From a virus, in the IMG/VR virus record IMGVR_UViG_3300005529_000066, positions 1 to 40,123 of that record: a DNA stretch of 40,123 nt; one strand, written 5' to 3'. Numbering within the stretch: position 1 is the first letter of the stretch; each line of letters starts with the position of its first letter. A model generated the notes under the pieces. The model did no database searches and was not told the DNA's origin. It saw only the letters and a list, made by a program, of their open reading frames with translations. Positions 3,317 to 40,123 of this stretch are shown one piece after another. A program made the translations under genes and the position numbers.

Positions 3317-3623
3317 CGCAGAAATGACTGATCCGAAAACCTGTAGTCCCCAGGCATGGAGCATCGCCAGCTTGTACAGCTCTGTACTCGGCGACTCTCA
3401 AGCGCGCGGCCTGGCTGAGTACATTGATGCCGCGCTCTCCGGCCTGCGCGCCGAGAATGAGCGGCTGACGGCAGCGCTCAAGAGTGCGAGCGCGCAGTGC
3501 GGAAACGTCATCTTCAATTGCGAGCAGCGGCCCGCGGACAATGCCCGGCACCTCTCATCGTGGCGCGGCGTCAAGGAATTCTGCGACGCGACCCTAAGCA
3601 TTCATGAGCGGGAATCGAAGTGA
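3309..3623 (+). CDS. Hypothetical protein, 104 aa
   Basis: GTG 3309 overlaps the end of the upstream gene. The central region looks coiled-coil. The stop overlaps the next GTG start. Confidence 0.5.
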   Translation: MSDAEMTDPKTCSPQAWSIASLYSSVLGDSQARGLAEYIDAALSGLRAENERLTAALKSASAQCGNVIFNCEQRPADNARHLSSWRGVKEFCDATLSIHERESK

Positions 3624-5876: not shown

Positions 5877-6071
5877 CGAGCCAAAACCGCGAACATGCGA
5901 TGGGTAGCAAATGGAGCAAGGCCGCTGACTATATGCTGGTATTCCAGTTTCTCTTGCTGATGACCAGTAAATTTTTTGTTGAAAGATTTCTAAGGGCTTG
6001 CTCCCCGTCGCGCTACCGATCCGCACCATCGCGTACCGACGTGACCGCCTCGTGCGGCGTGGAGGGGTGAG
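5877..6071. other. Candidate attP region
   Basis: A 195-bp gap lies directly 3' of int. It has a locally AT-rich core (about 5921-5995) in an otherwise >60% GC genome, and no coding-like ORF. This is the canonical attP position. The core sequence is not identifiable without the host attB. Confidence 0.35.
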
Positions 6072-6332
6072 ATGAAAGACCCAGCAATCCTGTTCTGCAA
6101 GCCGCAGGCGATCGACGATGCGAGCAAGGCGGCGCTGACCAAGGCCGGCGTGATCGTGGTTGAGGTCGCCGAGCCCCATGACGTGAAGCTCGTCCGACCG
6201 ATGGCCGATCTTCCAGGCTCAACGCTTCTGCGGATCGCAGCCGAGACGATCATGAAAAACGGGACTGACAGCACGCGCGAGCGGTTCGGTTGGCGCGTGT
6301 GCGAAGCCCTGACCACCGAGAAAGACGCCTGA
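6072..6332 (+). CDS. Hypothetical protein, 86 aa
   Basis: RBS GGAGGGG upstream of ATG 6072. Coding-like codon usage. Confidence 0.6.
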   Translation: MKDPAILFCKPQAIDDASKAALTKAGVIVVEVAEPHDVKLVRPMADLPGSTLLRIAAETIMKNGTDSTRERFGWRVCEALTTEKDA

Positions 6333-14336: not shown

Positions 14337-14384
14337 GCCGAATTGATATTCAGGTTTAGGAAACTAGGTCAATGCACTGATCAA
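14337..14384 (-). promoter_or_regulatory. Late promoter module, copy 1
   Basis: The minus strand reads TTGATCAGTGCATTGACC-N18-TATCAA-TTCGGC. The -35 is at 14367-14372 and the -10 at 14343-14348. It is 41/48 identical to 28082-28129 and lies upstream of ATG 14313. Confidence 0.6.
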
Positions 14385-25700: not shown

Positions 25701-26708
25701 TCAGATCGGCAGGAAGTTGAGCCCGTCAATCTTCTGGTGCGCCTTGCACTTGACGTTGACGAGCTGGATGAGAGTGACGACGGCGCCGAGGTAGCCAAGC
25801 TGGCCGTTGACCAGCGTGGATTCGAAGCCGGTGAACGAAAACGCGGCCTTCTCGCCGATGTAGGCCGAGAGGTAATTCGTGTTGATGAGGTAGAGCGTAC
25901 CCTCGGGGCAGTACGGGTCCGGGTAGAACGGCACGCCGGCCACGTCGAGCGCTTCGAACAGCGCTTCCACCTTCGTGTCGCCGAACGATTGGGTCGGCGT
26001 GACGACGTAGCGCTCGCTCGACGTGAAGTCCTGCGCGAGGTTCGCCCAGGTGCCAAAGCCCATCAGACCTATCACCGGCTTTTCGCCCGTGACCTTGGTG
26101 CACTGCGCGATGTACTGCAGCATCAGGTTGCGGGTCGGCGCGACCGTGCCGCCGTTGTGGACGTAGGTCGACTTCCAGAACGTGTTCGACGAGCGCGTGA
26201 TGCCGCCGTAGGTCGCCGCGAACGTGCCGTCGTCGATCGCGGCCGGCAGGCCCACCATCGACTGCGTGTTGGAGATGTTGTTGTAGATGTCGGTCGCGAA
26301 ACGATCGAGCGTGACGTTGGTCACGTCGTTCATGCGCGCCTCGATCAGCGGCACCACCGAGTAGTCCAGCTGCACCATGCCCTCGAGGCCGAGGAACGGG
26401 ATCGCCGAGAGATAGCCCGCCAGGTTGAACTCGGCGTTCTGCAGTCCCGGAATGGTGCCCGGCTGGTTGAACGATCCGTCGTAGCCGATGTTCTGGATCG
26501 TCACCATCGGGTTGCCCTGCAGGGGCACCGTGATCGGCGAGAGGCCACCGCTCGCGACCTGCGCGTGAGCGAGGATCGCCGCCATGAAGGGCGTCGACTT
26601 CCACAGCTGCACGTACACCTTCGGCAGGAAGGCGCGACGAGTGACGGCGGCAAGCTCGGATGCGATCGAGCTCTGGGCCGGAACGATTCCACTGCCAAAC
26701 TGCGGCAT
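25701..26708 (-). CDS. Major capsid protein, 335 aa
   Basis: RBS AAGGAGA. Follows the scaffold-like gene. Size and composition are typical of HK97-fold MCPs. Its antisense ORFs in the track are Arg-rich shadows. Confidence 0.75.
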   Translation of the reverse strand: MPQFGSGIVPAQSSIASELAAVTRRAFLPKVYVQLWKSTPFMAAILAHAQVASGGLSPITVPLQGNPMVTIQNIGYDGSFNQPGTIPGLQNAEFNLAGYLSAIPFLGLEGMVQLDYSVVPLIEARMNDVTNVTLDRFATDIYNNISNTQSMVGLPAAIDDGTFAATYGGITRSSNTFWKSTYVHNGGTVAPTRNLMLQYIAQCTKVTGEKPVIGLMGFGTWANLAQDFTSSERYVVTPTQSFGDTKVEALFEALDVAGVPFYPDPYCPEGTLYLINTNYLSAYIGEKAAFSFTGFESTLVNGQLGYLGAVVTLIQLVNVKCKAHQKIDGLNFLPI

Positions 26709-26720
26709 AGCTCAGTCTCC

Positions 26721-27218
26721 TTACGCCGCGCGCTTCCCGCGCCGGATCTCGGTGATGACGTTGAAAGCTTCGTTGCGCGCGGCACCTGCCGGGTCCTCGA
26801 TGAGGTTCGGCAGCGTCGGGAAAGTCCATGTCGCGGTCGGACCGTCGGCGGGCGGTGAGGGCGGCTTGCGCGCCTGCCACAGATCGCGGGCGGCCTCATA
26901 GTCCGTGAGGCCGTAGGTCGTCATCACGGTCTCGACTTCCTTCAGCTCTGCCTCGCTGAGGCCCAGGCTCGCGCGCTGCTCCTCGAGCTTGCGCAGCGTC
27001 GCCTGCTTCTGCTCCTCGAGCTTGCGCTCCTCGTCCTTCGCCTTCATCTCCTCACGCAGATCGTCGATGTCCTGGCTCGGGAAGCGGCGCGACGGGTCGA
27101 CCTTCTTCACCGCCTTCAGGAAGGTCGATCGCGTATCGGCATTGGCCGCGAGCTTCATCGCGAGCTCGGCCAGATCATCGCGCACGTCCGGCGCCATGTT
27201 GTCGATCATGCGCGGCAT
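26721..27218 (-). CDS. Scaffolding protein candidate, 165 aa
   Basis: Highly charged coiled-coil centre (DDLREEMKAKDEERKLEEQKQATLRKLEEQRASL). Lies directly upstream of the MCP. Confidence 0.6.
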   Translation of the reverse strand: MPRMIDNMAPDVRDDLAELAMKLAANADTRSTFLKAVKKVDPSRRFPSQDIDDLREEMKAKDEERKLEEQKQATLRKLEEQRASLGLSEAELKEVETVMTTYGLTDYEAARDLWQARKPPSPPADGPTATWTFPTLPNLIEDPAGAARNEAFNVITEIRRGKRAA

Positions 27219-27427
27219 CAGAGCGGCTCCCCTTTGCGTGCGAAGTAGCTGGCCGTTCCGACCACTCCCGCGCGCGTGTAGCCGCGGCGGCTTCCTGGGC
27301 TGCGGTCGAGCTGCAGGCCGTTCAGGCCGGGATTGCTGGGCGGGTTCGCGTAATGCGACGCCCGCTTGGATTCCTTGGTGCCCTTGCCGCCGATGCGGCC
27401 GGCGCGGATTTTCGGACAGCCGAGCAT
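27218..27427 (-). CDS. Small basic disordered protein, 69 aa
   Basis: TGATG overlaps at both ends. K/R/G-rich. Confidence 0.5.
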   Translation of the reverse strand: MLGCPKIRAGRIGGKGTKESKRASHYANPPSNPGLNGLQLDRSPGSRRGYTRAGVVGTASYFARKGEPL

Positions 27428-27630
27428 CAGATTGGCTTGCCCTTCTGCGCGGTCGGGGACTTCTCCAGCGCCATCGACGGGTTCTGCGTCGCGCGCATCT
27501 TCGCTGAGGAGGAGAAGCCGCCGAACTGCGGGTAGCTCGGGATGTTCTTGAAGGCGCCGTTCACGTCCTTGCGCTCGCCGATCGAGCCGGCCTTGACCTT
27601 CGGGCGGAACATGTTGCCGTTCGTCGCCAT
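27427..27630 (-). CDS. Small basic protein, 67 aa
   Basis: RBS AAGGAG upstream of ATG 27630. Confidence 0.5.
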   Translation of the reverse strand: MATNGNMFRPKVKAGSIGERKDVNGAFKNIPSYPQFGGFSSSAKMRATQNPSMALEKSPTAQKGKPI

Positions 27631-27639
27631 GATGGCTCC

Positions 27640-28059
27640 TTACGCTGCTGCCAGTGCTGAGGGATCGGGGGGCGGACCGCCTGCGGCGACCACGCCGGGC
27701 GGCGGCGCGGACGCCATCGGGCCGCCGGTGTTGGCCGAGTGGGCGAGCTGCTGAACAGCGGCTGGAACGAGCGATTGGCGCGTCTCCTGCCCGAACTCCG
27801 CGGTCAGCGAGGAGAGCGCGCGCATCACGCCCTTGTATTGCTTCGAACCAATCTCGTAGGCGCTGAGCGCCTTGTGCAGCGCGGGGATGACAGCCTTCAC
27901 CAGCGCGTCGGCCGCGGCCTTGTTGCCGGCACCGTCACCGGGCGACATCGCGGGGCTTGATCCGGGACCGCTCGGCCCGCCCGCCATGTTGCCGGGCAAC
28001 GCTGGCTTGGGAGGCATAGCCCCCCCTAGGGTAATCGGCGCTGAAGGCGGCAGCGGCAT
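27640..28059 (-). CDS. Pro/Gly-rich protein with helical core, 139 aa
   Basis: ATG 28059 was chosen because the track start at 28098 lies inside the promoter -10 region. First gene downstream of promoter copy 2. Confidence 0.55.
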   Translation of the reverse strand: MPLPPSAPITLGGAMPPKPALPGNMAGGPSGPGSSPAMSPGDGAGNKAAADALVKAVIPALHKALSAYEIGSKQYKGVMRALSSLTAEFGQETRQSLVPAAVQQLAHSANTGGPMASAPPPGVVAAGGPPPDPSALAAA

Positions 28060-28081
28060 TGCGTGGTCCTGATAACTCAGG

Positions 28082-28129
28082 GCCGAATTGATATTCACCT
28101 TTAAGAATGAAGGTCAATGCACTGATCAG
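28082..28129 (-). promoter_or_regulatory. Late promoter module, copy 2
   Basis: The minus strand reads CTGATCAGTGCATTGACC-N18-TATCAA-TTCGGC. The -35 is at 28112-28117 and the -10 at 28088-28093. It sits immediately after the terminator. Confidence 0.6.
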
Positions 28130-28160
28130 AAAATGAAAACCCCCGCCGGGACGACGGGGG
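28130..28160 (-). terminator. Intrinsic terminator
   Basis: Minus strand CCCCCG-UCGUCCCGG-CGGGGG (6-bp GC stem, 9-nt loop), followed by UUUUCAUUUU. Confidence 0.75.
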
Positions 28161-28245
28161 AGGGCGACCGTGAACGGGGGTTTCCTACACACTCCACCCG
28201 GCCGACGACGCAAGCAGGGCAGAGAAAGCTTTGTCGGTCAGCGCC

Positions 28246-28290
28246 TTAGCGCTTGTGCCGACGCTTGCCGCGACGATGACGACGCGCCAT
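28246..28290 (-). CDS. 14-codon Arg/His/Lys-rich micro-ORF (MARRHRRGKRRHKR)
   Basis: AAAGGAGGG RBS lies 5 nt upstream of ATG 28290; TAA at 28246-28248. It sits between its own promoter and terminator. The ~200-nt transcript could instead act as an sRNA. Confidence 0.4.
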   Translation of the reverse strand: MARRHRRGKRRHKR

Positions 28291-28339
28291 GATGCCCTCC
28301 TTTGGTTGCCCGTCTTTGCGGGTGGGATGGACTTCGCAC

Positions 28340-28387
28340 TCCGATGATAAATCGGTTGAGCGATCAATTACAATGCACTGATCACTA
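28340..28387 (-). promoter_or_regulatory. Late promoter module, copy 3
   Basis: The minus strand reads GTGATCAGTGCATTGTAA-N18-TATCAT. The -35 is at 28368-28373 and the -10 at 28344-28349. It overlaps the portal stop codon. Confidence 0.5.
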
Positions 28388-30094
28388 AGCCGCTTTCTCC
28401 TTCTTGCCGCGCTGCTCCGGCACCTGACCGGCAGCGCGCGCCGCCTGCAGCGCCTTCATCCGCGCGCGAAGCGCGTGGATCATGTTGTCGGCGTTCGGCG
28501 GGTTCATCATGCGGATGAACATCTCCTGATCGATCGCCTGTGCCTTCAAGAGCGCGCCGGCCAGTTCCTTCGACTCGTCGGCAAACAGCGGCGAGTGCGA
28601 GTGGCCGGCAATCCGCATCTTCCAGCCGTCCGGCAGCTGCGCGAGCAAGAACTCCTGCCCCATGTCGGACTTCAGCTTCGTGTCGTCGTTCTTCGCCTTC
28701 AGCTTCATCCCGATGTCGCCGAGCTTCACCAGCGACTGCTCTAGCCCGACGCCGACTTTGCGGATGCGCGACGATCCGGTGGTCGCTAGTTGCTTCGCGT
28801 GTCCGCGCCCGCGCACCCCGGATTCGCCCTTGCCGGTGACAGTTTCCGTCAGGCCCGACGCCTCGAGGAAAATCTGGCCGATCTGATTGAACTCGGCGAA
28901 CAGGTCTTCCGGCATCTTCGGCGCTAGCGTGTCCACCTTCGCCTGCGTGTTCATTGGTTCGATCACCCACGAGCCCGGACCGCCGAGCGCCGACGCCTTC
29001 TCGTCGGCGAGACCCATGAAGCCCGCGAACACCTTCGCGGGGTCAACCTGCCGCTCCAGAATGTCGGCGATCTGGTCAAGCCGCTCGTTCGACCAGCGCT
29101 GCAGCGGTATCAGCCGCTCGATGTGCGCCTCGCCCCAGAAATATTCCGGCAGCGGGTACGGCGTGATCGGAACGAACGGATGCTCATCGGGGAGGAACAG
29201 GTTGGAGTGTGACCCCCATTTCCCGGCGATTTTGTCCGGAACGTCCTTCGCCATCTTATCGACCGTCTCGCGCGAGTCCGCGATCACAATCCCCGGCTCG
29301 ACCATCACAAACGTCGCGTAGTCCTCCGCGATGTCGTCCCATATCCACACCTCGGTGAACTCCGCGCCGGGCGCATCGCTCATCGGCTCGTAGGTGGGCT
29401 TGGGCTCGTAGTCGAGCGGCACCGACCCCACGACCGGGCCGGACAGGTTCGCGCCGCCGGTCTGCGAAATCTCCATCATATGCGCCAGCACCGGCGGGTA
29501 GTCGCTGGTCTTTGGCCCATGCACGAGACTGAGCTTCGGCAGCAAGTCCTTCTGGCCGGCGCGCACCAGGCGCAACACCGTGTTGTCCCAGTCGAGCGTA
29601 TAGCGATGGGCGAACGCCTCTTGGCTGTCGATGTCGGGCTCCGACTCGTCGAACACGCCGAACGACGACGGCAACACCGTGCGGCCGAAAAGCTCATCGC
29701 GCTCGCTGTTCCATCCGAGCTTGAGGAACATCGTATCGTAGACGAGCGACCAAGGTAGGGCGTTGCCGTAGGCGGTGCCAAGACCGCTGTCGCGGAACGT
29801 GTCGTTCCATTCCTCCTCGGCGGCGAGCGTCTGCTTGATCACCGCCTCGTCCGAGTTGCGCGGTGCCGAGATCGAGTACCGCGCGTGATCCTCGGCAAAC
29901 AGGAACGACGCAACGAGATCGGTGTGCGCGTACAGTCGATTGTAGCGAACCGTCTCTTGGCCGTAGGTGCCGTAGAGAAAGTAGCGCTTGCGCCGGTCGT
30001 AGATTTTCTTGCGGTCCTCATTGGACTGCATGCAAACGTCGGCGACCCACTTCACCTTTTCGTCGCGCTTCTTCGGATCACGGGGGATGATCAT
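28385..30094 (-). CDS. Portal protein, 569 aa
   Basis: Size and position: downstream of terL and upstream of scaffold/MCP. ATGA overlap with the upstream gene. No named motif verified. Confidence 0.7.
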   Translation of the reverse strand: MIIPRDPKKRDEKVKWVADVCMQSNEDRKKIYDRRKRYFLYGTYGQETVRYNRLYAHTDLVASFLFAEDHARYSISAPRNSDEAVIKQTLAAEEEWNDTFRDSGLGTAYGNALPWSLVYDTMFLKLGWNSERDELFGRTVLPSSFGVFDESEPDIDSQEAFAHRYTLDWDNTVLRLVRAGQKDLLPKLSLVHGPKTSDYPPVLAHMMEISQTGGANLSGPVVGSVPLDYEPKPTYEPMSDAPGAEFTEVWIWDDIAEDYATFVMVEPGIVIADSRETVDKMAKDVPDKIAGKWGSHSNLFLPDEHPFVPITPYPLPEYFWGEAHIERLIPLQRWSNERLDQIADILERQVDPAKVFAGFMGLADEKASALGGPGSWVIEPMNTQAKVDTLAPKMPEDLFAEFNQIGQIFLEASGLTETVTGKGESGVRGRGHAKQLATTGSSRIRKVGVGLEQSLVKLGDIGMKLKAKNDDTKLKSDMGQEFLLAQLPDGWKMRIAGHSHSPLFADESKELAGALLKAQAIDQEMFIRMMNPPNADNMIHALRARMKALQAARAAGQVPEQRGKKEKAA

Positions 30095-30594
30095 GACGTT
30101 CCCTTATGTCGCGCAACTACTTGCGCTTTCGGCCCGCCGAGCGGGGCCATCACGGTACGATCCCCCTGCCGCACCGGCACCGCAGCCGATGGGGTGAACT
30201 TCTGCGTCTGATTTGGCGCCACGTTCGCGGTAACGCGCTGGCTCATCCCGTTCGGCTCGCACGACGCCACCGGAGAACCATTCGACGCAATGCCCACCTT
30301 GCCCCTGAATGATCCGATCTGGCGCTCCTCGAATTTCGCGGCGCGCGGACCTTCGTAGCGATGCGGCGCGGCGCGCTCCCCGTGCCGCGGCTCGTTCATG
30401 TTCGTCAGGCCGGCGCGGTCGGTGAGCGTTCGGATTGTCGCGTCGTATCCAGGCGCCTTCTTCATGATCGCAAATCCCTTCGGGACCCACTTCACGCGCA
30501 AGCCCTTGCAGCGCGGGCACGACGGATGGTTCGCCTCGCTGTCGAACTCGTTCCGACAGTTGCGGTTGAGACAGGCGTATGTGCGCGTCACCAT
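30091..30594 (-). CDS. Zinc-ribbon protein, 167 aa
   Basis: ATG 30594 overlaps the upstream stop (TGATG). N-terminus CLNRNC...CPRC. Confidence 0.55.
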   Translation of the reverse strand: MVTRTYACLNRNCRNEFDSEANHPSCPRCKGLRVKWVPKGFAIMKKAPGYDATIRTLTDRAGLTNMNEPRHGERAAPHRYEGPRAAKFEERQIGSFRGKVGIASNGSPVASCEPNGMSQRVTANVAPNQTQKFTPSAAVPVRQGDRTVMAPLGGPKAQVVARHKGTS

Positions 30595-30890
30595 CAGATC
30601 ACCCTCGTTGCTGCGCCTTCCACATTCCACGTCTGCCCGTGCCGCACGAACTTCAGCTTGCCGTTGCGGATCGCCATGATCGCATCGGATAGCGGCACGA
30701 TCCGGCGCTTGGGTATGCGTCCGTAGAAGATATAGCGGTGAAGACATTCGCGCCGGATGCCCAGATAGTCGGACAGCCCCTTGATCGGCACCCGACCGCG
30801 GCCGGTGTTGTCGATGTCGTGCGGGTCGTAGCGGTAGCGTTTGAGTTCGCGCACGATCTCAGCTTCCGGGAGAGCAATTGCCCCTGTCAT
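30594..30890 (-). CDS. Hypothetical protein with HTH-like segment, 98 aa
   Basis: ATG 30890 in ATGA overlap with the terL stop. IKGLSDYLGIRRECLHRYI segment. Confidence 0.55.
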   Translation of the reverse strand: MTGAIALPEAEIVRELKRYRYDPHDIDNTGRGRVPIKGLSDYLGIRRECLHRYIFYGRIPKRRIVPLSDAIMAIRNGKLKFVRHGQTWNVEGAATRVI

Positions 30891-32770
30891 TGCATCGGCA
30901 CCCCAATTTTCACGGTCTTCAGGTAGTTGATCGCCATGTCCTCGAGCTGCTTCTGCGTCTTGTTCATTTGCCGCTCGCCATCCCGCATCGCTTTCGCAAG
31001 CGTAAGGCCCTGCATCATCAGCTTGGGCTGAACCCAGCGCTTCCATGCCTCATGCGCGAGCGCGGCGCCGATCACGCGATCGTCGTGCCCCCTGCCCTGC
31101 GCGTGGATCTGGCCCTCCTCGGTGACGATCGACTTCATTTCCTCGAGGCAGTAGAGGGATCGTATCTTGATCAGCTGTAGGTCAAACGAGTCCTTGAAGC
31201 GGTTCATCAAGGGCGCCTTGGTCGAGGCGTTGGTCTGCCAGTGAAAGAAGCCCTGCCCCGACGACATCGAGTCCGGCCGACGATAGATGAAATATCTGAT
31301 CTGCTGCAGGCACGAGCGCACGCTCGCGCCGCCCTGGTGCTCCTCGCCGTCCGGCACGGTCAGCATCTGCTGCGCCTTCATGCGCAACTCGTCGAGCTCG
31401 CCCAGCACTGCCTTGCCCGGACCGTTCGTCTCGAGGTTCACCATCACGTTGCGATAGAGGCCGGAAAGATGCGCCAGCACCCAGGCGCAGTGGTAGGTCG
31501 ACGCGATCGACGAACAGAACTCGGCCACCTGATACTGGCAATCCGCAAAGCAGCGGAACACGCTGATCACGTTGCGGTCGGCCTCGTCGCTCGATCCATA
31601 TGACGGGTCACAGCCGATCGTGTAATGACCCTCGGGATCAGGAAATTCCCACACCTTCAGGTCGGCGCGCTTCGCGTCCTTGAGCGCCACGCACTCGGTC
31701 TCGTTCCACTGGCGCGTCAGGATGTAACGGAACGGCCGGAACGCCGAACCGCGAGCAATCCGCATCGCGTCGGTCAGGCTCTCGTTGGTGAAGAATTTCG
31801 AGCCCGTCGCCACGAATGCGTCTTCCGGCATCCATGGGAACATCTCGTCCATCTTCATTTGGTCGCCGTCGCACTCCTCATCGAGCTTCCAGCGATACCA
31901 GGCTATCTGCTCGGGGGTGATCGTGAAGCCGTAGGTTTCCTTCACCATCCGCGCGCGTTTGCGTTCGAGCGGCGTCAGCGTCGTGTCGCGTCCGTCCGGC
32001 ATGTAGATCGGGAAATACGGGTGCGTCTGCGCGTAGGCGTAGTGATCGTGGCGCCACCAGCCCACGAAAATAGCCCGCTGCGTCGGACTGTCGACCGCCT
32101 TCTCCCACATCTCCTGGAAGTGGTTGAAGCCGTTAGCCGTCGTCTCATAGACCTGCAGCCGGTGCGGGTAGTGCGTCGACAGCGTCGCCCGCAATTCCTT
32201 GAGGTCTTCCTCGTCGCCCCAGAACGCTACCTCGGTTGCGTGCAGGAAGTTGCTCGCGCCCGACCGGCCGAGCCCGGCCTTCGTCTTCTTCTTCACCCCG
32301 GCCACGAGATAGCGGAATAGCGAACTGTTCTTGAGGATCAGCATCGAGCGGTTGTGCTTCTCGTAGCCGATCCGAAACCCCTTCGGCAGGTTCGCGAACA
32401 GCACCTCGATGATGTTGCGGAACTGCTCGCGCGACTGCTCGTCGTGCGTCGCGAACGAACCCGCAAGCCCGCGGTGCTCCATCGCCCAGAAGATGTCCAG
32501 CACCACAAAGAACGTCGAAATCCCCAGCTGCCGCGCCTTCAGGATCACAAACGTCGTGCACCCCTCGGCCAGCCCTTTGCAGATCTCGTTGAGGATGTAG
32601 ATCTGCGTCCCCAGCATCTCGAGCGGCATCAGCCCGAAGTCCTTGGTGAGGATCTTCACCTTCGAACAGAACTTCAGAAACCGCTCGCGCGGGAACGGTG
32701 CAACCCCCATCGCCGGAGCCGGCTCGATCATCTCCCCCTCAAGCGGAAGGTCCGGCGCGATCTCCTCCAT
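30887..32770 (-). CDS. terL: Terminase large subunit, ~627 aa
   Basis: Walker-A-like ILKARQLGIST, Walker-B/catalytic LHATEVAFW, coupling motif YETTANG. ATG 32770 was chosen because the 56-codon upstream extension in the track (to 32938) has poor GC3 and a Gly-rich nonsense-like sequence. Confidence 0.9.
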   Translation of the reverse strand: MEEIAPDLPLEGEMIEPAPAMGVAPFPRERFLKFCSKVKILTKDFGLMPLEMLGTQIYILNEICKGLAEGCTTFVILKARQLGISTFFVVLDIFWAMEHRGLAGSFATHDEQSREQFRNIIEVLFANLPKGFRIGYEKHNRSMLILKNSSLFRYLVAGVKKKTKAGLGRSGASNFLHATEVAFWGDEEDLKELRATLSTHYPHRLQVYETTANGFNHFQEMWEKAVDSPTQRAIFVGWWRHDHYAYAQTHPYFPIYMPDGRDTTLTPLERKRARMVKETYGFTITPEQIAWYRWKLDEECDGDQMKMDEMFPWMPEDAFVATGSKFFTNESLTDAMRIARGSAFRPFRYILTRQWNETECVALKDAKRADLKVWEFPDPEGHYTIGCDPSYGSSDEADRNVISVFRCFADCQYQVAEFCSSIASTYHCAWVLAHLSGLYRNVMVNLETNGPGKAVLGELDELRMKAQQMLTVPDGEEHQGGASVRSCLQQIRYFIYRRPDSMSSGQGFFHWQTNASTKAPLMNRFKDSFDLQLIKIRSLYCLEEMKSIVTEEGQIHAQGRGHDDRVIGAALAHEAWKRWVQPKLMMQGLTLAKAMRDGERQMNKTQKQLEDMAINYLKTVKIGVPMQ

Positions 32771-33473
32771 CACACCACCCCCAGGAATCCGTACCCAGGC
32801 CGCGGCGCGTGACACTCCGGACAGAACCACCGCCCGCCGAGCGCCCACCTCTGGAAATGCCACCCGCGACGCACCGGCAGCCCAGCCCGAAACCGCGCCG
32901 ATACCGCCCCGAAAACACGATCCAACAAAGTCGGGCAAAATCGCGCCGAACAGCGCGCACAGCGGACTTGTGTGCCAACCTCAAACACAGACCAAGCCCC
33001 TGACAGACATCATATTTTTTTCTGGGGTGGGGGCCGTGGGGGGCGCCTTTCTCACTGCCTTGAGGACCCATCGGCTGAGCGCGCCCGCGCGCGCCGTGGG
33101 GCCAATCGGGGACCATTGTGGAAAAACCGTATTAATGTCAGAGGGTTGCCTGTGTCTACTAACACCTTGGTTCATCGTGCGGCGGCGCAGCAAATACGCT
33201 TGCGCCTGGCTATCCGATCGCAAAGCCATTGAAATCATTGGGTTTCCGGTTAAGAGCCTGTTAACCGCCCATGAGCAGGAGATCCGATGGGGGCTTAGTC
33301 GGCCGGTCAGGGGCTGGTCCGCCCCGCTTCTGACACCCGCGTTGTTGGCCTGCTCGGTTGGCTGCCTTGTGCTTGTCGTCCGCTCTATGGCGGACTGGAT
33401 TGAGCGGCCAGAGGTGCGCGGGGAACGGCTTGTGAGGGAGCCGCGCGCGAGGAGGCGGTGCTGATTGTGCGAT

Positions 33474-33536
33474 GTCAATGCACTGATCCATGATGCTGTT
33501 ATCATTGGCGTATCGACGATTTTCCGATCAGTGCAT
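33474..33536. repeat. Inverted pair of the promoter-box sequence (ATGCACTGATC ... GATCAGTGCAT), 37-nt spacer
   Basis: 33478-33488 and 33526-33536 are exact reverse complements. The left copy continues as TTGACA on the minus strand, but no -10 follows it. Confidence 0.85.
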
Positions 33537-33541
33537 GTAAC

Positions 33542-33550
33542 ATTATAACA
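33542..33550 (-). promoter_or_regulatory. Extended -10 promoter element (TGTTATAAT) facing the late region
   Basis: The minus strand reads TGtTATAAT, a perfect -10 with the TGn extension, just upstream of the inverted pair. No convincing -35. Confidence 0.4.
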
Positions 33551-33575
33551 TACCATTCATTCGTACACGAACGAT

Positions 33576-33794
33576 CTATGCCTCGCTCTCGGTGATGAAG
33601 GCGTGCAGGTCGCGTGCGAGCTTAACGAGGTCGTCGCCGTGGCAGTTGAGGCTCGCGGCGGCCTGGATTGCCTTCTCGACTGCGTAGGTACGTGTCGCGC
33701 GATCGGCGGCCTTGACCTGCTGCTGCTGCACGGTGGTGATGCGTTGGTCTGCTGCCTCGAGGGCGGCCTGCTGTTCTACTTCGGTCAGCGCCAT
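33576..33794 (-). CDS. Hypothetical coiled-coil protein, 72 aa
   Basis: RBS AGGAGG upstream of ATG 33794. The track start at 33866 overlaps the upstream gene. Confidence 0.6.
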   Translation of the reverse strand: MALTEVEQQAALEAADQRITTVQQQQVKAADRATRTYAVEKAIQAAASLNCHGDDLVKLARDLHAFITESEA

Positions 33795-33810
33795 GTCTGT
33801 CCTCCTGTGA

Positions 33811-34449
33811 TCATTCCGCGGCCTCACTCTGCGGCTGGCCGGTGAGATCAGCCTTGAGCTTGGCAAATCCGTCTAGGATGTAGGCGCGCTCCTCCGGGCT
33901 CGGCTCGCGCATCGCCTCATCGATCGGCACCGCAGCGATCAGATTCTCGAGGTGCAGCACCGTCGGCCTGAGTGTGGCGATCTCGGCCATCGCGATCTTG
34001 CGCAGCACGGCCGGCGCCGGCGGCCAGCGGTAGTCGTGCTCGTCACCAGCAGCTCCGCGATTCCAACAGCGCACAGCGCCTTGCAGCGCCCATGGCGGCA
34101 CGTCGTCGAGCGCGTCGAGATACGTTTCACCGCGTGCTCGTCCGCTCTCTGCCGACGCATTCGCGATCGGGTAGGCGAGCAGCATCTTGCTGATGATGCC
34201 GAGCCGCTGCTTGCGCGTTTCCGCGGCGTCGTCGGAGGTCATCTCGAGCTGCATCCGGGCGAGCGCGCGCTGTGCGTCGGCGCGCTGCTCATCCGTCAAT
34301 TTCAATCCTCCCGCGAGGTATGTCCGCATCGGCTGGCCCGGCCACTGCACTGTCCCCACAGAGATCTTGCGCAACCGAACTAAGCCCGGCGAAGAAATCA
34401 TCTGCGCCAGATCGTCGAGGGCTTGGTGCTGCGTGAGTTCGTTGGCCAT
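33811..34449 (-). CDS. Replication-module protein of unknown function, 212 aa
   Basis: RBS GGAG upstream of ATG 34449. Good GC3 from the first codons. Follows the iteron-containing gene. Confidence 0.6.
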   Translation of the reverse strand: MANELTQHQALDDLAQMISSPGLVRLRKISVGTVQWPGQPMRTYLAGGLKLTDEQRADAQRALARMQLEMTSDDAAETRKQRLGIISKMLLAYPIANASAESGRARGETYLDALDDVPPWALQGAVRCWNRGAAGDEHDYRWPPAPAVLRKIAMAEIATLRPTVLHLENLIAAVPIDEAMREPSPEERAYILDGFAKLKADLTGQPQSEAAE

Positions 34450-34948
34450 TCGAGGCTCCGGTCTGCTGGTAGGGCGACGTCACCCAGTTGCGCCATGCGG
34501 CCTCGAGGCCGACGAAGCCGCGATGTCTCCTGCCTTTCGCGATGCCGTGATCGCGAAAGCGCTGCCATTCGGTTTGAATTCTTGTGAGTTCCCAGCGGTG
34601 CTCGATTGCGGCGAAGTTCATCGCCTTCTCGGTCGGCCGATCGGGTGTCTCGATAGATACTTTAACTTTCTTCTCTTTCTTACTTTCTTCTATATTGTGC
34701 GCGTCACATGTGACGCTTTGTGACGCTTTGTGACGCTCGGTGACGATTGGGTTTTGCGTCACTTGGCCGTCACTTTGTGACGCTTTGTGACGCCCGCGCC
34801 AGCGCGCCGTTCGGATCGCGCCGGGTGATTTTCGGTATGCGGCTGTGGCGGCACCGGCGGCGACTGCGGCCGCGATGATCTCGCTCGCCTCGGCGATCGA
34901 GAGGCCGACCTCGACCAAGCGCTCGACGAGATCTCCGACGTTGCTCAT
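34289..34948 (-). CDS. Putative replication initiator (lambda O-like arrangement: origin inside the gene), 219 aa
   Basis: ATG 34948 in ATGA overlap with the rusA stop. Iterons and an AT-rich tract lie inside the ORF (RHKASQS encoded twice). WRNWV near the functional end. The last ~160 nt overlap the next gene out of frame with poor GC3. Confidence 0.55.
   Translation of the reverse strand: MSNVGDLVERLVEVGLSIAEASEIIAAAVAAGAATAAYRKSPGAIRTARWRGRHKASQSDGQVTQNPIVTERHKASQSVTCDAHNIEESKKEKKVKVSIETPDRPTEKAMNFAAIEHRWELTRIQTEWQRFRDHGIAKGRRHRGFVGLEAAWRNWVTSPYQQTGASNGQRTHAAPSPRRSGADDFFAGLSSVAQDLCGDSAVAGPADADIPRGRIEIDG
34653..34794. repeat. Putative origin of replication: AT-rich tract (34653-34698) plus GTGACGC iterons (34701-34794)
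   Basis: Palindrome GCGTCACATGTGACGC at 34701-34716. GTGACGC at 34710, 34720, 34730 (variant at 34740), 34778 and 34788, giving 10-bp phasing. Inverted copies at 34757 and about 34767. Confidence 0.7.
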
Positions 34949-35319
34949 GCGATTCCCCGAATGTGGACGCGGCAGCCTTGCGGCGCGTCGCCCCATTCGA
35001 CCGTCAGCTTTCGCAGGCGCGGTTGGTCGTCGCCCTCGATCGCGTCGATGCGGTGCAGGTAGTCGATCAAGCTCTTGATGCCGTTGTCGAGGTCGATGCC
35101 CGTGTGGGCTTCGGACATGACGATCAGCAGCTCGTAGGGGCCGTAAATCTTGCGCGGCTGGCCGCGGCGTTGCAGCAGCACGAATCCATTCGCGCCACGC
35201 TTCCACTTGTCGACCAGCTTCTGTGATTTCCAATCGACTCGCCGCGTGCGGTTGACGCTCGGCGGCGCTGGTAGGTCGAACACGATGACCGGCGGCACCG
35301 CGAAAGGCGGGTCCGTCAT
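34945..35319 (-). CDS. rusA: RusA-type Holliday junction resolvase, 124 aa
   Basis: LPAPPSVNRTRRV... and GIDLDNGIKSLIDYL...GDD motifs typical of RusA. ATG 35319 was chosen because the upstream track extension overlaps gcrA. Confidence 0.85.
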   Translation of the reverse strand: MTDPPFAVPPVIVFDLPAPPSVNRTRRVDWKSQKLVDKWKRGANGFVLLQRRGQPRKIYGPYELLIVMSEAHTGIDLDNGIKSLIDYLHRIDAIEGDDQPRLRKLTVEWGDAPQGCRVHIRGIA

Positions 35320-35342
35320 CGACACCGAAGATGCTGCCAGCT

Positions 35343-35792
35343 TCAAGCGTGCGTGCTTTCGCTCCGATACGCGATGGCGTGATGAGCGGCGCAATACGAG
35401 ACGCCGTCGGCGATGATCTCTCCGCAGAACAGGAAATGCGCTTCCCCGTAAGGGAAACGGCACTGGTTGGCGCACATGTGCTCAAGGTCGACGCTGCCTT
35501 GCGCCGGCGCGTCCGGAGCCGGGACGCACTCGAATTGCGTCGCCGCACGTTTGCGTGAACGCGGTTGCCAGCCGCGCTTGTTGCCGGTGCGATTGGAGAG
35601 GCCGAGCCGCGCGAGCTTGCCGGACACGACGCCGCGCGAGTTGAGGCCGAGCTCGCCGCAGATTTCAGCCTGCGACCATCCGGCGGACCAAAGCTCTTTC
35701 AGCCGCTCGACGCGCTCCGGCGTCCATGTGTCCCATTCGTGCGCCGGGCGCTGTCCCTGCGTGCGGGGCGGTAGATCAACGGTGTCGGTCAT
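35343..35792 (-). CDS. gcrA: GcrA cell-cycle regulator homologue, 149 aa
   Basis: WTPERVERLKELWSAGWSQAEICGELGLNSRGVVSGKLARLGLSNR N-terminal domain. C-terminal CRFPYGE..FLFCGE....SYCAAHHAIAY. This is the canonical GcrA architecture. Confidence 0.9.
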   Translation of the reverse strand: MTDTVDLPPRTQGQRPAHEWDTWTPERVERLKELWSAGWSQAEICGELGLNSRGVVSGKLARLGLSNRTGNKRGWQPRSRKRAATQFECVPAPDAPAQGSVDLEHMCANQCRFPYGEAHFLFCGEIIADGVSYCAAHHAIAYRSESTHA

Positions 35793-35819
35793 GGGTCCCC
35801 AGCCCTTCCCTCAGTTCAA

Positions 35820-36089
35820 TCATTTCCGCACAGGCCGCCGCGAGCGGATGATGATCCGCTGCATCTCGACGTAGACGATCGGGTCGGCGTCGGACTCGTG
35901 CGCGAGCCATCGTCGCGCGGTGCGCACATCGCATCCCGCAATCGCGGCGATTTCGGCGTCGGTGTTGACCGGCCAGATGACTTTGCAGACCGGCCCGAAG
36001 AGCGGGCGGACAATTTCGTCCTCCCCAGGGCGGAAGCGTCCGCCGATTTCGTTGGCGACAAACTCGGAATTCCCGAATGGTGCACGCAT
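35820..36089 (-). CDS. Small HTH DNA-binding protein, 89 aa
   Basis: RBS AGGGGGA. TDAEIAAIAGCDVRTARRWL helix-turn-helix-like segment. Confidence 0.55.
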   Translation of the reverse strand: MRAPFGNSEFVANEIGGRFRPGEDEIVRPLFGPVCKVIWPVNTDAEIAAIAGCDVRTARRWLAHESDADPIVYVEMQRIIIRSRRPVRK

Positions 36090-36200
36090 GAACAGTCCCC
36101 CTGATCACTCACGCGACGCGACAACACGCTCGCGTACAAACTCGCGATGAACATGCGCCCGCTCATGCGGAACCCCGTTGCAACCGAAGGTCGATTACAG

Positions 36201-36214
36201 GTAGGGTGCAAGGA
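36201..36214 (+). repeat. 14-nt motif GTAGGGTGCAAGGA covering the RBS/start of the 37-aa peptide gene (copy 1)
   Basis: Recurs with a 1-nt deletion at 36382-36394. Both copies are preceded by TTAC(N)CAG. Confidence 0.7.
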
Positions 36215-36327
36215 TGAGGATATTCGTGGGCACGACGCTGCTGATCGCTGTGCTGGTCGGGGCGGCGGTGTTCTTCACCCGCAACACGCCGCCCGCGATT
36301 GTCGACGTGGCTCCCATCCGGCGCTAA
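36214..36327 (+). CDS. 37-aa single-TM hydrophobic peptide (MRIFVGTTLLIAVLVGAAVFFTRNTPPAIVDVAPIRR)
   Basis: ATG 36214 to TAA 36325-36327. 33 of 37 codons end in G/C. Antisense to the surrounding minus-strand early operon. Below the track threshold. Confidence 0.5.
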   Translation: MRIFVGTTLLIAVLVGAAVFFTRNTPPAIVDVAPIRR

Positions 36328-36381
36328 CCCTGTTAATTGCGGGGACAACCGACCATTCACGCTTGATTGATGCTTACCGCA

Positions 36382-36394
36382 GTAGGGTGCAGGA
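36382..36394 (+). repeat. Copy 2 of the motif (GTAGGGTGCAGGA)
   Basis: Direct comparison with 36201-36214. Confidence 0.7.
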
Positions 36395-36599
36395 CCTTGA
36401 GTCGTTTCTCGGTCCCTTGTGGCAACCCAACCCAACCTATGGGATTTTCCCGATTGTTCCGACCTCAAGTTGCGCGGAACCAACATACAACGTGAGTTAT
36501 TTTGCCTATTGGATAGGCGCAGACGAGGCCCGTAAGCTACCGGCGGGGCGAGGAAAACAGCCGGGGCAATCAAATGGGCAAGGTTCTGCCGTTCCGCCG

Positions 36600-36812
36600 T
36601 CATGCGCGCGCCTCAGCGGCGAGCTCGGCCAACGTCTCGAGCCGAATATCCACACCCTTAGCGGCGGCGATCCGGATCAGCGCAGACCAATGCGGAGCCG
36701 GAATGCCGTTCGGCCGCGTGCGCCATCCGCTGACCGTCGAGAGCGACAGTGAGAGCGCGTCCGCAACTTCGCCGGTGCCGCCGAGGGCGTCGATGATCGA
36801 GCCTGGGGTCAT
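36600..36812 (-). CDS. Cro/YdaS-like HTH regulator, 70 aa
   Basis: GGTGEVADALSLSLSTVSGWRTRPNGIPAPHW is the typical Cro/YdaS-type HTH. ATG 36812 was chosen because the track start at 36833 lies inside the promoter. The ATG is 8 nt after the -10, so the mRNA is probably leaderless. Confidence 0.75.
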   Translation of the reverse strand: MTPGSIIDALGGTGEVADALSLSLSTVSGWRTRPNGIPAPHWSALIRIAAAKGVDIRLETLAELAAEARA

Positions 36813-36820
36813 AGCGCCGC

Positions 36821-36849
36821 TTAATATTCGCACCGTGCGAATAAGTCAA
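36821..36849 (-). promoter_or_regulatory. Early-left promoter with operator O1 in the spacer
   Basis: The minus strand reads TTGACT (36849-36844) - 17 nt - TATTAA (36826-36821). The spacer holds the palindrome ATTCGCACCGTGCGAAT (36826-36842). Confidence 0.65.
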
Positions 36850-36903
36850 GCTGTCGCAAATCGCGAAACGACTTTCCCGGTCGACCGTGGTGCAATCTGG
36901 CCC

Positions 36904-37167
36904 ATGGTGGATTCCCCGAAAGTGATCGGGCCGCGGCTCAAGGAGCTGCGCATCGCGCTCGGCTTCAAGCGGCAACTCCACTTTGCGCGCGAAATCGGCA
37001 TCGAGCCGCAAACCTACAATCCTTGGGAAAAAGGCAAGCGCCCCCTCACCTTTGAGGGCGCCTGCCTGATCCGCAAGAAGTTCCGCGTGCCGCTCGACTA
37101 CCTGTTTTTTGGCGATGTCGGCGAGCTTCCAGTGCGGTTGCACCGCAAGCTCGAGAAGGCCGCATGA
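36904..37167 (+). CDS. XRE-family HTH repressor (CI-like), 87 aa
   Basis: IGPRLKELRIALGFKRQLHFAREIGIEPQTYNPWEKGKRPLTFEGACLIRKKFRVPLDYLFFG is a classic HTH_XRE. Divergent from the Cro-like gene. No SD; TGCAAT lies 7 nt upstream of the ATG. Confidence 0.85.
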   Translation: MVDSPKVIGPRLKELRIALGFKRQLHFAREIGIEPQTYNPWEKGKRPLTFEGACLIRKKFRVPLDYLFFGDVGELPVRLHRKLEKAA

Positions 37168-37361
37168 CGCGCTTGGCCGCAGCGGCGATCGTTGCGGCGG
37201 CGCTGGCCGGGTGCGCGCTGTCCCCTGAAGACCGTGCTGCCCTGCGCGAGATGTCGGCCCAGGTCGGCGGCGCGGTCGCCGCCTCCCAGCCCGATCGCCC
37301 GCCCGAGATCAATTGCACCACCACGACGAACGGACCAATCGCGCGCACGAATTGCCGCTGA
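37164..37361 (+). CDS. Small lipoprotein, 65 aa (superinfection-exclusion candidate)
   Basis: ATGA overlap with the repressor gene. Signal plus lipobox MTRLAAAAIVAAALAGC. Confidence 0.7.
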   Translation: MTRLAAAAIVAAALAGCALSPEDRAALREMSAQVGGAVAASQPDRPPEINCTTTTNGPIARTNCR

Positions 37362-37364
37362 ATA

Positions 37365-37385
37365 AAATTCGCACCGCGCGAATTT
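37365..37385. promoter_or_regulatory. Operator O2
   Basis: AAATTCGCACCGCGCGAATTT contains ATTCGCA-N3-CGCGAAT, a variant of the O1/O3 palindrome. Confidence 0.6.
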
Positions 37386-37390
37386 AGTTG

Positions 37391-37419
37391 TTGACTTATT
37401 CGCAAGGTGCGAATTATAT
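37391..37419 (+). promoter_or_regulatory. Early-right promoter with operator O3 in the spacer
   Basis: TTGACT (37391-37396) - 17 nt - TTATAT (37414-37419). The spacer holds ATTCGCAAGGTGCGAAT (37398-37414). Same architecture as the early-left promoter. Confidence 0.65.
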
Positions 37420-37443
37420 GGCCCCAGCACACAGGGGCCGCAC

Positions 37444-37773
37444 ATGCCTTACCACGATCTCCTCAACGCCGACGGCTCGGTCAACGCCGCCGAATACGAC
37501 AAAATCCTCGAAAACCGCGTCACCCATGAGGTGAACCTGCGCCGCTGCAACGAGGCGCGCATCCACGCGCCGCACCATGTTCCGCTCGGCTGCGTCGCGG
37601 TGTTCTACGCGATGATGGTCGACCAGATGCGGCTCCCGGAACTGCCGGCCGCCGAGATCGATCGCATCCGCCGCCAGCAGACCGTGGCGCTCAATGACTG
37701 GGTCGGCGCCATGTCGGTCGCTGCCGCGAAGCAGCGGCGCGCCATGCTGCGGGTGGAGCGCAAGGCGTCATGA
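37444..37773 (+). CDS. Hypothetical early protein, 109 aa
   Basis: First ORF downstream of the early-right promoter. Coding-like codon usage. Confidence 0.6.
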   Translation: MPYHDLLNADGSVNAAEYDKILENRVTHEVNLRRCNEARIHAPHHVPLGCVAVFYAMMVDQMRLPELPAAEIDRIRRQQTVALNDWVGAMSVAAAKQRRAMLRVERKAS

Positions 37774-39491: not shown

Positions 39492-39803
39492 ATGACGAAC
39501 CACCCGAACCGGAGCAAGAGCAACGGCAAGGAACGCGCCGTTGTCGTGACCACGGCGCACAGCGGCGTATTCTTCGGCTACGCCGCCGACACCGAAGGCG
39601 AGAGCATCAAGCTCCGCGCTGCACGGAACTGCATCTACTGGCCGGTCGAGAACAAGGGCTTCATGGGTCTCGCCGCCATGGGGCCGGTAAAGGGCGCCCG
39701 CGTCGGCCCGGCGGCCGACATCTCGCTGCGCCACATCACCAGCGTGATCGAATGCTCGCCCGACGCCGTGACGGCATGGGAGGCGGCGCCGTGGAGCCGG
39801 TGA
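39492..39803 (+). CDS. Hypothetical protein, 103 aa
   Basis: RBS AGGAGA 7 nt upstream of ATG 39492 (track TTG start at 39438 is less likely). The stop overlaps the GTG of the repeat-protein gene. Confidence 0.6.
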   Translation: MTNHPNRSKSNGKERAVVVTTAHSGVFFGYAADTEGESIKLRAARNCIYWPVENKGFMGLAAMGPVKGARVGPAADISLRHITSVIECSPDAVTAWEAAPWSR

Positions 39804-40123
39804 TACTTAGAGGCGAGCCAGCGAAGCTGGCGAGCCAATACGGCTACGGCTCCGGCTACGGCTCCGGCTACGGCTCCGGCTACGGCTCCGGCTCCGGCTC
39901 CGGCTCCGGCTACGGCTCCGGCTCCGGCTCCGGCTCCGGCTACGGCTCCGGCTCCGGCTACGGCGACGGCGACGGCTACGGCTCCGGCTCCGGCTACGGC
40001 TACGGCTACGGCTACGGCTACGGCGACGGCGACGGCTACGGCTACGGCTACGGCTACGGCGACGGCGACGGCTACGGCGACGGCTACGGCGACGGCTACG
40101 GCGACGGCTACGGCGACGGCTAC
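39800..40123 (+). CDS. 5' part of Gly-Tyr/Ser/Asp repeat protein (continues at 1..473)
   Basis: GTG 39800 in GTGA overlap with the upstream stop; in-frame ATGs at 39776 and 39752 are also open. Reads VILRGEPAKLASQ-(YG/SG/DG)n to the last base. Not in the track because it has no stop inside the window. Confidence 0.7.
   Translation, partial: MILRGEPAKLASQYGYGSGYGSGYGSGYGSGSGSGSGYGSGSGSGSGYGSGSGYGDGDGYGSGSGYGYGYGYGYGDGDGYGYGYGYGDGDGYGDGYGDGYGDGYGDGY
39839..40123 (+). repeat. Coding tandem array of GGC-TAC / GGC-TCC / GGC-GAC hexamers (95 codons)
   Basis: Blocks run GYGS x4, GSGS runs, GYGY runs, then GYGD x4-5. The last 62 nt equal the first 62 nt of the window. Confidence 0.95.

Follow-up and report, generated by a model that had tools for sequence, protein, structure and literature searches.

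In the multi-promoter late regulons of the phages Mu and P2, several promoters head the operons for morphogenesis and lysis, each with the same short site next to or over its -35 element, and a small phage activator, made earlier, works on them together with the host sigma-70 polymerase: in Mu this is the C protein, which serves Plys, PI, PP and Pmom, whilst in P2/P4 it is Ogr/Delta, which serves PP, PO, PV and PF, by activation of the class II type. Here we describe a set of putative promoter modules resembling these regulons in an uncultured soil phage, IMG/VR record IMGVR_UViG_3300005529_000066, the whole of which (40,123 nt) is called the window below; related loci carry L-numbers and strands are given as (+) or (-). 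Three of the modules contain an identical 14-nt box, TGATCAGTGCATTG, fused to the upstream side of a -35 hexamer. We consider it moderately probable, judging from the sequence and its comparison with relatives, that these modules are the promoters of the structural-gene regulon, that they are used by the host sigma-70 polymerase and that the box is bound by a trans-acting factor; we infer where transcription starts, its late timing, an activating and not a repressing effect, and which factor is involved. As a finding, phage late promoters with a regulator box are of an ordinary kind, activator-type promoters being already known. Almost nothing is known of late-gene timing in the phages of soil Alphaproteobacteria, and the family to which this phage belongs, roughly 40-kb alphaproteobacterial podophages, is large and without a cultured member.

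The scheme that we propose resembles that of Mu and P2, from which the locus differs in that no C, Mor or Ogr homologue was found, in that the box is asymmetric where Mu and P2 have dyad sites, and in that the -35 is good in the clade of the window (the window together with L022 and L043) rather than absent. Amongst the Alphaproteobacteria, the nearest counterpart of the locus is the way in which GafY, IHF and GafZ control the gene transfer agent (GTA): in Caulobacter crescentus, integration host factor (IHF) is needed at the GTA promoters together with GafY and GafZ (PMC11150451). Common to both are an alphaproteobacterial host, phage-like structural genes, the sigma-70 polymerase and a degenerate or assisted -35 (PMC11150451), and further an IHF element upstream of the core promoter (here a putative one), a second element in the spacer between -35 and -10, and terminators inside the cluster. 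The Caulobacter system differs in the placement of its sites, with GafY at -123 to -113 and the IHF element between the GafY site and the -35 instead of fused to it, and in using one promoter with antitermination for a 14-kb cluster, where four promoters are present here; no GafY or GafZ homologue was recognised, no search with the GafY/GafZ sequences having been made.

The putative promoter modules and their shared box

The 14-mer is present in three exact copies, all (-), at the modules that we call P_fib, P_head and P_pep (copies 1 to 3; Table 1), and two degenerate copies lie back-to-back, 35 nt apart, near 33.5 kb, the first of them being referred to as P_ter. All five lie in gene-free gaps and four are oriented like the genes downstream. 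Under a first-order Markov model, 0.0003 copies of the 14-mer are expected against the three seen, and 0.022 copies of its core GATCAGTGCAT against five (P=4e-11). Since some 14-mer was present three times in 9 of 200 simulated sequences, the case rests on this particular word and its placement. The sequence-only reading that drew attention to the locus had described a 48-nt module at 14384-14337 and 28129-28082; both copies are there, identical at 41 of 48 positions, and the similarity of the repeat reaches 57 nt at 84% identity. It had also placed the third copy across the portal stop codon and the inverted pair at 33474-33536: the third copy exists, but abuts the stop (TAG 28387-28385, box from 28384), and the pair is likewise real, with the boundaries given in Table 1 in place of that span.

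The promoter geometry is as had been claimed, TTGACC-18-TATCAA twice and TTGTAA-18-TATCAT once, and four window copies of the box, like three apiece in L022 and L043, run into the -35 and end in its TTG. The modules stand in intergenic gaps and point toward downstream structural or lysis genes: P_fib stands ahead of the gene for the 659-aa fibre-like protein, a lectin-like gene and those for lysis, whilst P_head heads the head and tail genes, the first of which has its ATG at 28059. P_ter lies upstream of the genes for the terminase large subunit, the proteins p98 and p167, and the portal. The intrinsic terminator directly ahead of P_head is the only strong one found in 26000-37600, and an equivalent hairpin with T-run is present in the relatives examined.

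The likeness of copies 1 and 2 over 48-57 nt, spacer included, is what a recent duplication would leave behind, and with a near-consensus -35 (TTGACC) these could be plain, unregulated promoters whose box is a remnant of duplication or gene conversion that no factor binds. We hold this to be very improbable: copy 3 and both 33.5-kb copies share the box only, amid unrelated flanks, which gene conversion would have homogenised too, and about ten other lineages share nothing except the box between P_pep and P_head, though the cassette is ancient.

No sigma factor or RNA polymerase gene was found amongst the roughly 60 window open reading frames (ORFs) scanned, so that the host polymerase must read the box sites; promoters of a phage sigma factor or polymerase were discarded on the same ground. 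The operator-controlled early promoters of the phage, PL and PR, are TTGACT-17-TATTAA and TTGACT-17-TTATAT, from which it follows that the host polymerase reads promoters of this type, and PL is our reference for an unassisted promoter in this phage. Other functions of the box were also considered and rejected: it is not the immunity operator, which is another palindrome, nor an integrase arm site, the boxes being 9-29 kb away from the integrase gene, nor a replication iteron, the iterons being a separate repeat at 34706-34796, and it matches no CtrA, LexA or FNR site.

Conserved sequence is also present between and around the two hexamers (28088-28106 and 14343-14361, (-)). The spacers of P_head and P_fib share TTCYTAAAssTGAA, which is found in L022 as well and is missing from the P_head of L043; the P_head promoters of the window, of L022 and of the distant relatives L066, L064 and L061 carry an element CTnAAAGsnG roughly 6 nt past the -35. 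The -10 in the clade of the window is embedded in a conserved TGAAnATCAATT.

Table 1. Positions of the promoter modules, box copies and associated features in the window, and the boxes of related loci.
Feature	Position	Strand	Details
P_fib module	14337-14384	(-)	box 14370-14383; -35 TTGACC 14367-14372; 18-nt spacer; -10 TATCAA 14343-14348; predicted start ~14336
P_head module	28082-28129	(-)	box 28115-28128; -35 TTGACC 28112-28117; -10 TATCAA 28088-28093; predicted start ~28081
P_pep module	28344-28384	(-)	box 28371-28384, directly after portal stop; -35 TTGTAA 28368-28373; -10 TATCAT 28344-28349; predicted start ~28337
P_ter box	33476-33489	(-)	GGATCAGTGCATTG, 1 mismatch; then TTGACA; no recognisable -10; equivalents in L022 (6630) and L043 (3047)
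Inverted degenerate box	33525-33538	(+)	CGATCAGTGCATGT, 3 mismatches
Intrinsic terminator	28130-28160	(-)	stem of 9 bp, 8 of them G-C, followed by TTTTCATTTT; immediately ahead of P_head
Micro-ORF	28246-28290	(-)	MARRHRRGKRRHKR, then stop; strong Shine-Dalgarno AAGGAGG; hairpin in 5' leader
p98 gene	30594-30890	(-)	98-aa helix-turn-helix protein; between terminase and portal
GcrA homologue	35343-35792	(-)	PF07750, E=3.6e-23
PL, leftward early promoter	36821-36849	(-)	TTGACT-17-TATTAA; palindromic operator ATTCGCACCGTGCGAAT in spacer
PR, early promoter with operator	37391-37419	(+)	TTGACT-17-TTATAT; near-identical unit to PL
Box, L022			CAGTCAATTGACA
Box, L043			CATCAGYACATTG
Box, L044/L060			TGACCTGGRTTTG
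Box, L034			GACYTGRCACTATTCGC
Box, L031			ATGTGTCATAAT
Box, L030			TCTGTCTCT
Box, L053			TCAWGTGTAACT
Box, L061			CTGTAAGCTGAC

Proposed mechanism

In the scheme that we favour, host RNA polymerase with its housekeeping sigma factor would use the -35-like hexamer, a spacer of 16-18 nt and the weak -10, whilst the recognition box, 11-14 nt long and located at about -47 to -34, where it joins the -35 from upstream, would be bound by a trans-acting factor, most likely phage-encoded, that helps or licenses the polymerase. The early transcript from PL (36849) would traverse the genes for regulators and replication, then those for terminase, p98 and the portal, and stop at the terminator at 28130-28160; because it ends there, the head, tail, fibre and lysis genes would depend on P_head and P_fib. 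The factor, made from the PL transcript or supplied by the host, would then act at the box promoters, with P_head and P_fib driving the long morphogenesis and lysis operons and P_pep separately driving a terminated mRNA of about 200 nt for a 14-aa Arg-rich peptide; the pair at 33.5 kb may feed back on the unit of terminase, p98 and portal or may be binding sites and nothing else. What the sequence-only reading had called the late-promoter signature of the phage gains indirect support from the position of the modules in gaps, their orientation, the placement of one directly after a terminator and the recurrence of this layout with lineage-specific boxes, whilst its suggestions for the reader of the box (GcrA or a supposed helix-turn-helix protein) and for a role of methylation fared badly, as set out below. 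The box offers a testable handle: there are four predicted start sites, natural variants in relatives and few candidate readers.

Comparison with related genomes

About 25 related loci were fetched by means of the portal, capsid and p98 proteins; the capsid protein has 2489 metagenome homologues at E<=1e-50. Around 15 related genomes show a common layout, in the order portal, promoter, Arg-rich micro-ORF, intrinsic terminator, second promoter and head genes, and in most genomes compared P_pep and P_head share a box of 10-16 nt that abuts the -35 and differs by lineage (Table 1). The sequence-only reading had proposed that the box be sought in related phages: at the same three sites, upstream of terminase, after the portal and after the terminator, variant boxes were found in L022 (78% identity in the portal) and L043 (95% in the capsid), whereas distant lineages carry unrelated boxes. 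A search of IMG/VR with the exact box plus TATCA gave three matches, all unrelated and coding. In the listed lineages outside the clade, the box is present exactly twice per locus, at P_pep and P_head, in roughly 9-21 kb.

The pairing of the two promoters within a genome is also seen statistically: P_pep aligned with the P_head of its own genome scores 21.1 on average against 15.9 across genomes, the observed sum was reached in none of 20,000 permutations (p<5e-5), and the own P_head is the best-ranked partner of P_pep in 7 of 14 genomes. Spacers and -10 elements have diverged freely; retention of the box amid such divergence is the signature of a cis site that co-evolves with its trans-acting reader and argues, on comparative grounds, for the box being such a site and not a mere remnant of duplication. 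Variation within the clade points in the same direction: amongst 11 aligned copies, A-CAG...AT is invariant and T, T and G are nearly so, and the four central bases are near-fixed within each genome (TGCA in all five window copies, TCAA/TAAA in L022, CACA/TACA in L043) whilst the flanks vary, a pattern that suggests selection exerted by a reader specific to each genome, and not gene conversion. A sequence-specific factor thus probably reads the box.

In many relatives the -10-like hexamer of P_head precedes by only 6-8 nt the ATG that opens the first head gene, which implies a leaderless mRNA with the box at about -48 to -37 and a promoter position that is fixed independently of the box. The -35 is degenerate in many of them (GTACTT, ATTCGC, ATGCAG, GGAGTG), but good in the clade of the window (TTGACC/TTGACA). 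For the L034 lineage, promoters of the sigma-54 type were considered and dismissed, the GG/GC spacing being 10, not 12.

The sites resemble in several ways the stoperators of the cluster A mycobacteriophages (L5 gp71), which are also asymmetric, 13-14 bp long, located in short intergenic gaps and oriented with transcription; stoperators vary amongst related phages together with their binding protein, and the box likewise differs between lineages. Stoperators differ in number and function: there are about 20-30 per genome, and they are bound by the immunity repressor, whereas here 2-5 sites are present, each fused to a -35, and the immunity-type operator is another palindrome.

Candidate readers of the box

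One candidate is supplied by the host. If IHF were to bind the box and bend the promoter, it could silence the -35 until a phage factor intervenes, or shape the promoter for an activator bound upstream, as it does for GafY at the GTA promoters of Caulobacter. The sequence ATCAG-N3-ATTG that is conserved in the clade falls on specified positions of the consensus WATCAR-N4-TTR, with 8 of 9 specified positions fitting and the variable positions falling on Ns; the core ATCARNNNNTTR (ATCAR-N4-TTR) is exact in 9 of 10 clade promoters, with one mismatch in the tenth, and is matched 10 times in the window against 2.1 expected. The distant L066 (AATCAGGCAGTTGACG) and L064 (TTCAACGGCTTGACG) have the motif at the same offset from the -35 (TTGACG), T-rich tracts precede two box copies, and IHF is required at phage-like late promoters of an alphaproteobacterium (PMC11150451). 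Were IHF the reader, the IHF dependence of the Caulobacter gene transfer agent would extend to true phages. Nevertheless, we consider this, the chief of the rival readings, unlikely as the whole explanation, though IHF may act jointly with a phage factor: the W position is G or C in every copy, so that the full consensus WATCARNNNNTTR has no match in the window, the four bases at 'N' positions are near-invariant per genome and differ across genomes, which IHF alone does not explain, and the boxes of other lineages carry no IHF-like motif though they occupy the same position. The match was moreover noticed post hoc amongst many possible consensus sequences, and the site overlaps the -35. IHF sites with such an overlap usually repress, as examples from E. 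coli and Mu illustrate.

The sequence-only reading had named as candidate readers the GcrA homologue and an 89-aa 'HTH' protein (35820-36089), with an activity that might depend on methylation of the GATC in the box by the phage methyltransferase. The family assignment of GcrA (PF07750) was confirmed, and GcrA is the sole non-structural protein common to the window and L022, whose boxes are nearly alike. Haakonsen et al. are said to have described GcrA in 2015 as a sigma-70 cofactor that aids open-complex formation, a role that would suit the weak -10. The enzyme at 3620-4171 is a real DNA methyltransferase (DPPF motif, PHROG 11619), and GATC is present in five of five window copies. In spite of this, we judge a reader of this kind highly improbable. 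A GcrA model built from the window and L022 sequences matched these two alone and nothing in the sequenced parts of the other relatives; in L043, which has the same box type, the gene at the syntenic place is not GcrA, the contig being incomplete; and the DNA-binding segments of the two GcrA proteins differ markedly. GANTC, the canonical GcrA/CcrM mark, has 60 sites in the window, none in or near any of the five box copies, and GATC itself is lost in relatives, becoming CATCAG in two of three L043 copies and GAACAG in one of three L022 copies, so that methylation dependence finds no comparative support. For the 89-aa protein, neither Pfam nor PHROG gave a match, and there are just 5 homologues, all outside the related loci that were fetched. 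GcrA homologues, which are common in such phages, are thus probably not readers of late promoters. Across the window, GANTC is far rarer than expected (60 seen, 202 expected) and GATC commoner (373 seen, 252 expected), which suggests selection tied to a host system of the CcrM or HinfI type.

Amongst the phage proteins, the leading candidate for the reader is p98, a suggestion that we make tentatively from sequence comparison. It is present in 21 of 27 sequences scanned and falls into no family of Pfam or PHROG. Word-indexed searches with p98, as with the 89-aa protein, yielded almost no homologues; when 1.84 billion representative proteins were scanned in full, 38 clusters were found at E<=1e-3. 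The protein has a conserved N-terminal motif similar to EIVRWFRRFRYDPEF, a core that matches the Lac repressor headpiece (PDB profile match, E=1.3e-4) and a C-terminal beta-hairpin, with the recognition helix as its most variable, indeed hypervariable, part; AlphaFold2 on p98 alone reached a pLDDT of 40. The helices of L031, L014 and L053 resemble one another (PRxN[LV]YxI[LM]), as do their boxes (GTGT[ACG]A); L059, the flanks of which are close to those of L014, departs from it in both helix (PRRNLHYIL) and box (GCTATTT). The relatives without p98 (L064/L065, L039 and GenBank MW202825) have no shared box and a consensus -35. Overall, p98 covaries with the box weakly: box similarity correlates with helix identity at r=0.35, and a partial Mantel test controlling for the rest of p98 gives r=0.19 (p=0.026).

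An extended form of this proposal would be a family-wide late switch, in which p98 reads a private box at two to four promoters and co-diversifies with it around a cassette of promoter, micro-ORF, terminator and promoter, the peptide being a new, abundant late product. We regard this as possible but on balance doubtful; if true, it would be a previously undescribed late-gene switch, with the peptide serving for instance as a DNA counter-ion in the capsid. A phage-encoded reader that co-diversifies with its box would also amount to a natural series of orthogonal promoter-regulator pairs.

Several observations weigh against the regulated promoters that we propose. A consensus promoter scan, with the criteria of a -10 with A second and T last and a spacing of 16-18 nt, accepts TTGTAA-18-TATCAT (9/12) alone and rejects copies 1 and 2 despite a 5/6 -35, their TATCAA being without the T at -7. 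The P_ter box and its inverted partner have no -10 at all. The near-consensus -35 in the clade of the window is atypical of activator-dependent promoters, every transcription start for this phage and its relatives is a predicted one, and the box core equals the IHF consensus, whereby a host protein may be the reader. As regards p98, the rest of the protein correlates with the box about as well as the helix does (p=0.037 vs p=0.026), and the boxes of the window and L043 are nearly alike, but their recognition helices only 33% identical; p98 might instead be the small terminase subunit, given that no small subunit was identified.

Other proteins near the boxes offer less as readers. The 72-aa acidic protein encoded at 33576-33794, just upstream of the 33.5-kb boxes, is common to the window, L022 and L043 only, and does not look like a DNA binder. 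A 212-aa protein, considered as a Q analogue, was discarded as its gene adjoins the iterons and has no counterpart in relatives. The p167 protein (30091-30594, (-)) has an N-terminal zinc ribbon, C-X4-C-X12-C-X2-C, and 33-76% identity in relatives, and matches no family; it may be a further regulator, or else a structural protein. In L022, the closest IMG/VR relative, a stand-alone winged-helix protein of the OmpR type (Trans_reg_C, E=8e-9) is encoded at 5834-6121, just upstream of the first box, and the window has no counterpart.

The micro-ORF and antitermination

The transcription unit of P_pep has as its only coding content the Arg-rich micro-ORF. In relatives it encodes 11-14 residues, almost all Arg, His or Lys, with MARRRRHRRGRR in many, and its context recurs: a leader hairpin followed by CAAC-rich sequence, and a terminator of its own. 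It was found in L022, L043, L044, L034, L031, L030, L014, L053, L059 and L061, and also in L010, L013, L027, L029, L046, L047 and L064 and in L039 (25752-25911), and is duplicated in some genomes (L061, MW202825). Ala is encoded by all four of its codons and Arg by codons of the CGN as well as the AGR type, which indicates that selection acts on the peptide. No Rfam match and no paper on the peptide were found, and the leader hairpin was not recovered by RNAalifold from a MAFFT alignment. Together with the comparative picture and the p98 family, the micro-ORF cassette is the part of this work most worth following.

This unit also bears on antitermination, which the sequence-only reading had raised in the form of a Q-type loading site. 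The modules would then load a processive antiterminator like lambda Q or GafZ, P_pep and the terminator would play the part of PR'-6S-tR', and the element in the spacer would be the binding element. In lambda, the Q binding element lies between -35 and -10. That of GafZ is placed in the same way (PMC11150451). The strong terminator about 200 nt after P_pep and the spacer element common to P_head and P_fib, with its similar CTnAAAGsnG in L066, L064 and L061, agree with such a mechanism, and the shared element leaves it a small opening; even so, we think it very unlikely, since a second full promoter directly after the terminator makes antitermination unnecessary. A Q-type scheme with a single promoter is also a poor fit to the four promoters present, no Q-like or GafZ-like protein was recognised, no second -10-like pause element stands at a constant place downstream of the start, and the P_head of L043 is without the spacer element; the retention of the micro-ORF as a peptide, moreover, makes of the short transcript an mRNA and not a mere leader.

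Genome organisation

The window is a complete, circularly permuted phage genome with an identical 12/18-nt tandem repeat at both ends (39785-40123 and 1-167), which codes for a GYGSG/GDGY repeat protein; as the reading frame shifts across the junction, the repeat may be collapsed or misjoined in the assembly. One window protein is 100% identical to a protein in a metagenome-assembled Pseudolabrys sp. genome (40,142-nt contig). Searched with the DNA of 26500-34000, the GenBank phages yielded nothing beyond chance matches of 38 nt, and no cultured relative was found; a search of GTDB genomes with the portal gave no prophage relative, and the ejection-protein query gave one relative, too distant for use. 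No Rfam families or tRNAs were found in the window.

The plus strand carries integrase-like, Rad52-like, NinB and HNH genes and two methyltransferases. On the minus strand, the order from PL is the 89-aa protein, the GcrA homologue, a RusA-like gene, the replication-type iterons, the 212-aa and 72-aa proteins, the 33.5-kb box pair, terminase large subunit, p98, p167 and portal, followed by box 3, micro-ORF, terminator and box 2, then the head, tail and ejection genes and, after box 1, the 659-aa fibre-like protein, the lectin-like protein, endolysin and DUF1515. The fibre-like gene (12334-14313, (-)) has no family match, and its product starts with a signal-peptide-like hydrophobic segment, MLPSILPRVGVLLLLLAALFGAPAARAQ, which is unusual in a virion protein.

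The spacers of PL and PR each hold one copy of the operator palindrome ATTCGCAC-N-GTGCGAAT, and the two units flank a Cro/CI-type helix-turn-helix gene (36904-37167), so that the whole looks like an immunity switch. At least four copies of the 10-nt iteron CTTTGTGACG are present at 34706-34796, in a gap of 500 nt that lies upstream of the gene for the 212-aa protein, and this region together with the 212-aa gene is probably the replication origin and its initiator. The stretch of about 600 nt upstream of terminase (32940-33575) lacks a convincing coding signal: a 191-aa ORF was called in it, with the wrong codon-position G+C pattern. Within it, an 80-nt stretch (33014-33093) resembles L022 and is G+C-rich with an A-run at its end, and a short motif, CCGATGGGTC, recurs in L043: the region upstream of terminase, and especially 33014-33093, may be the cos or pac region.

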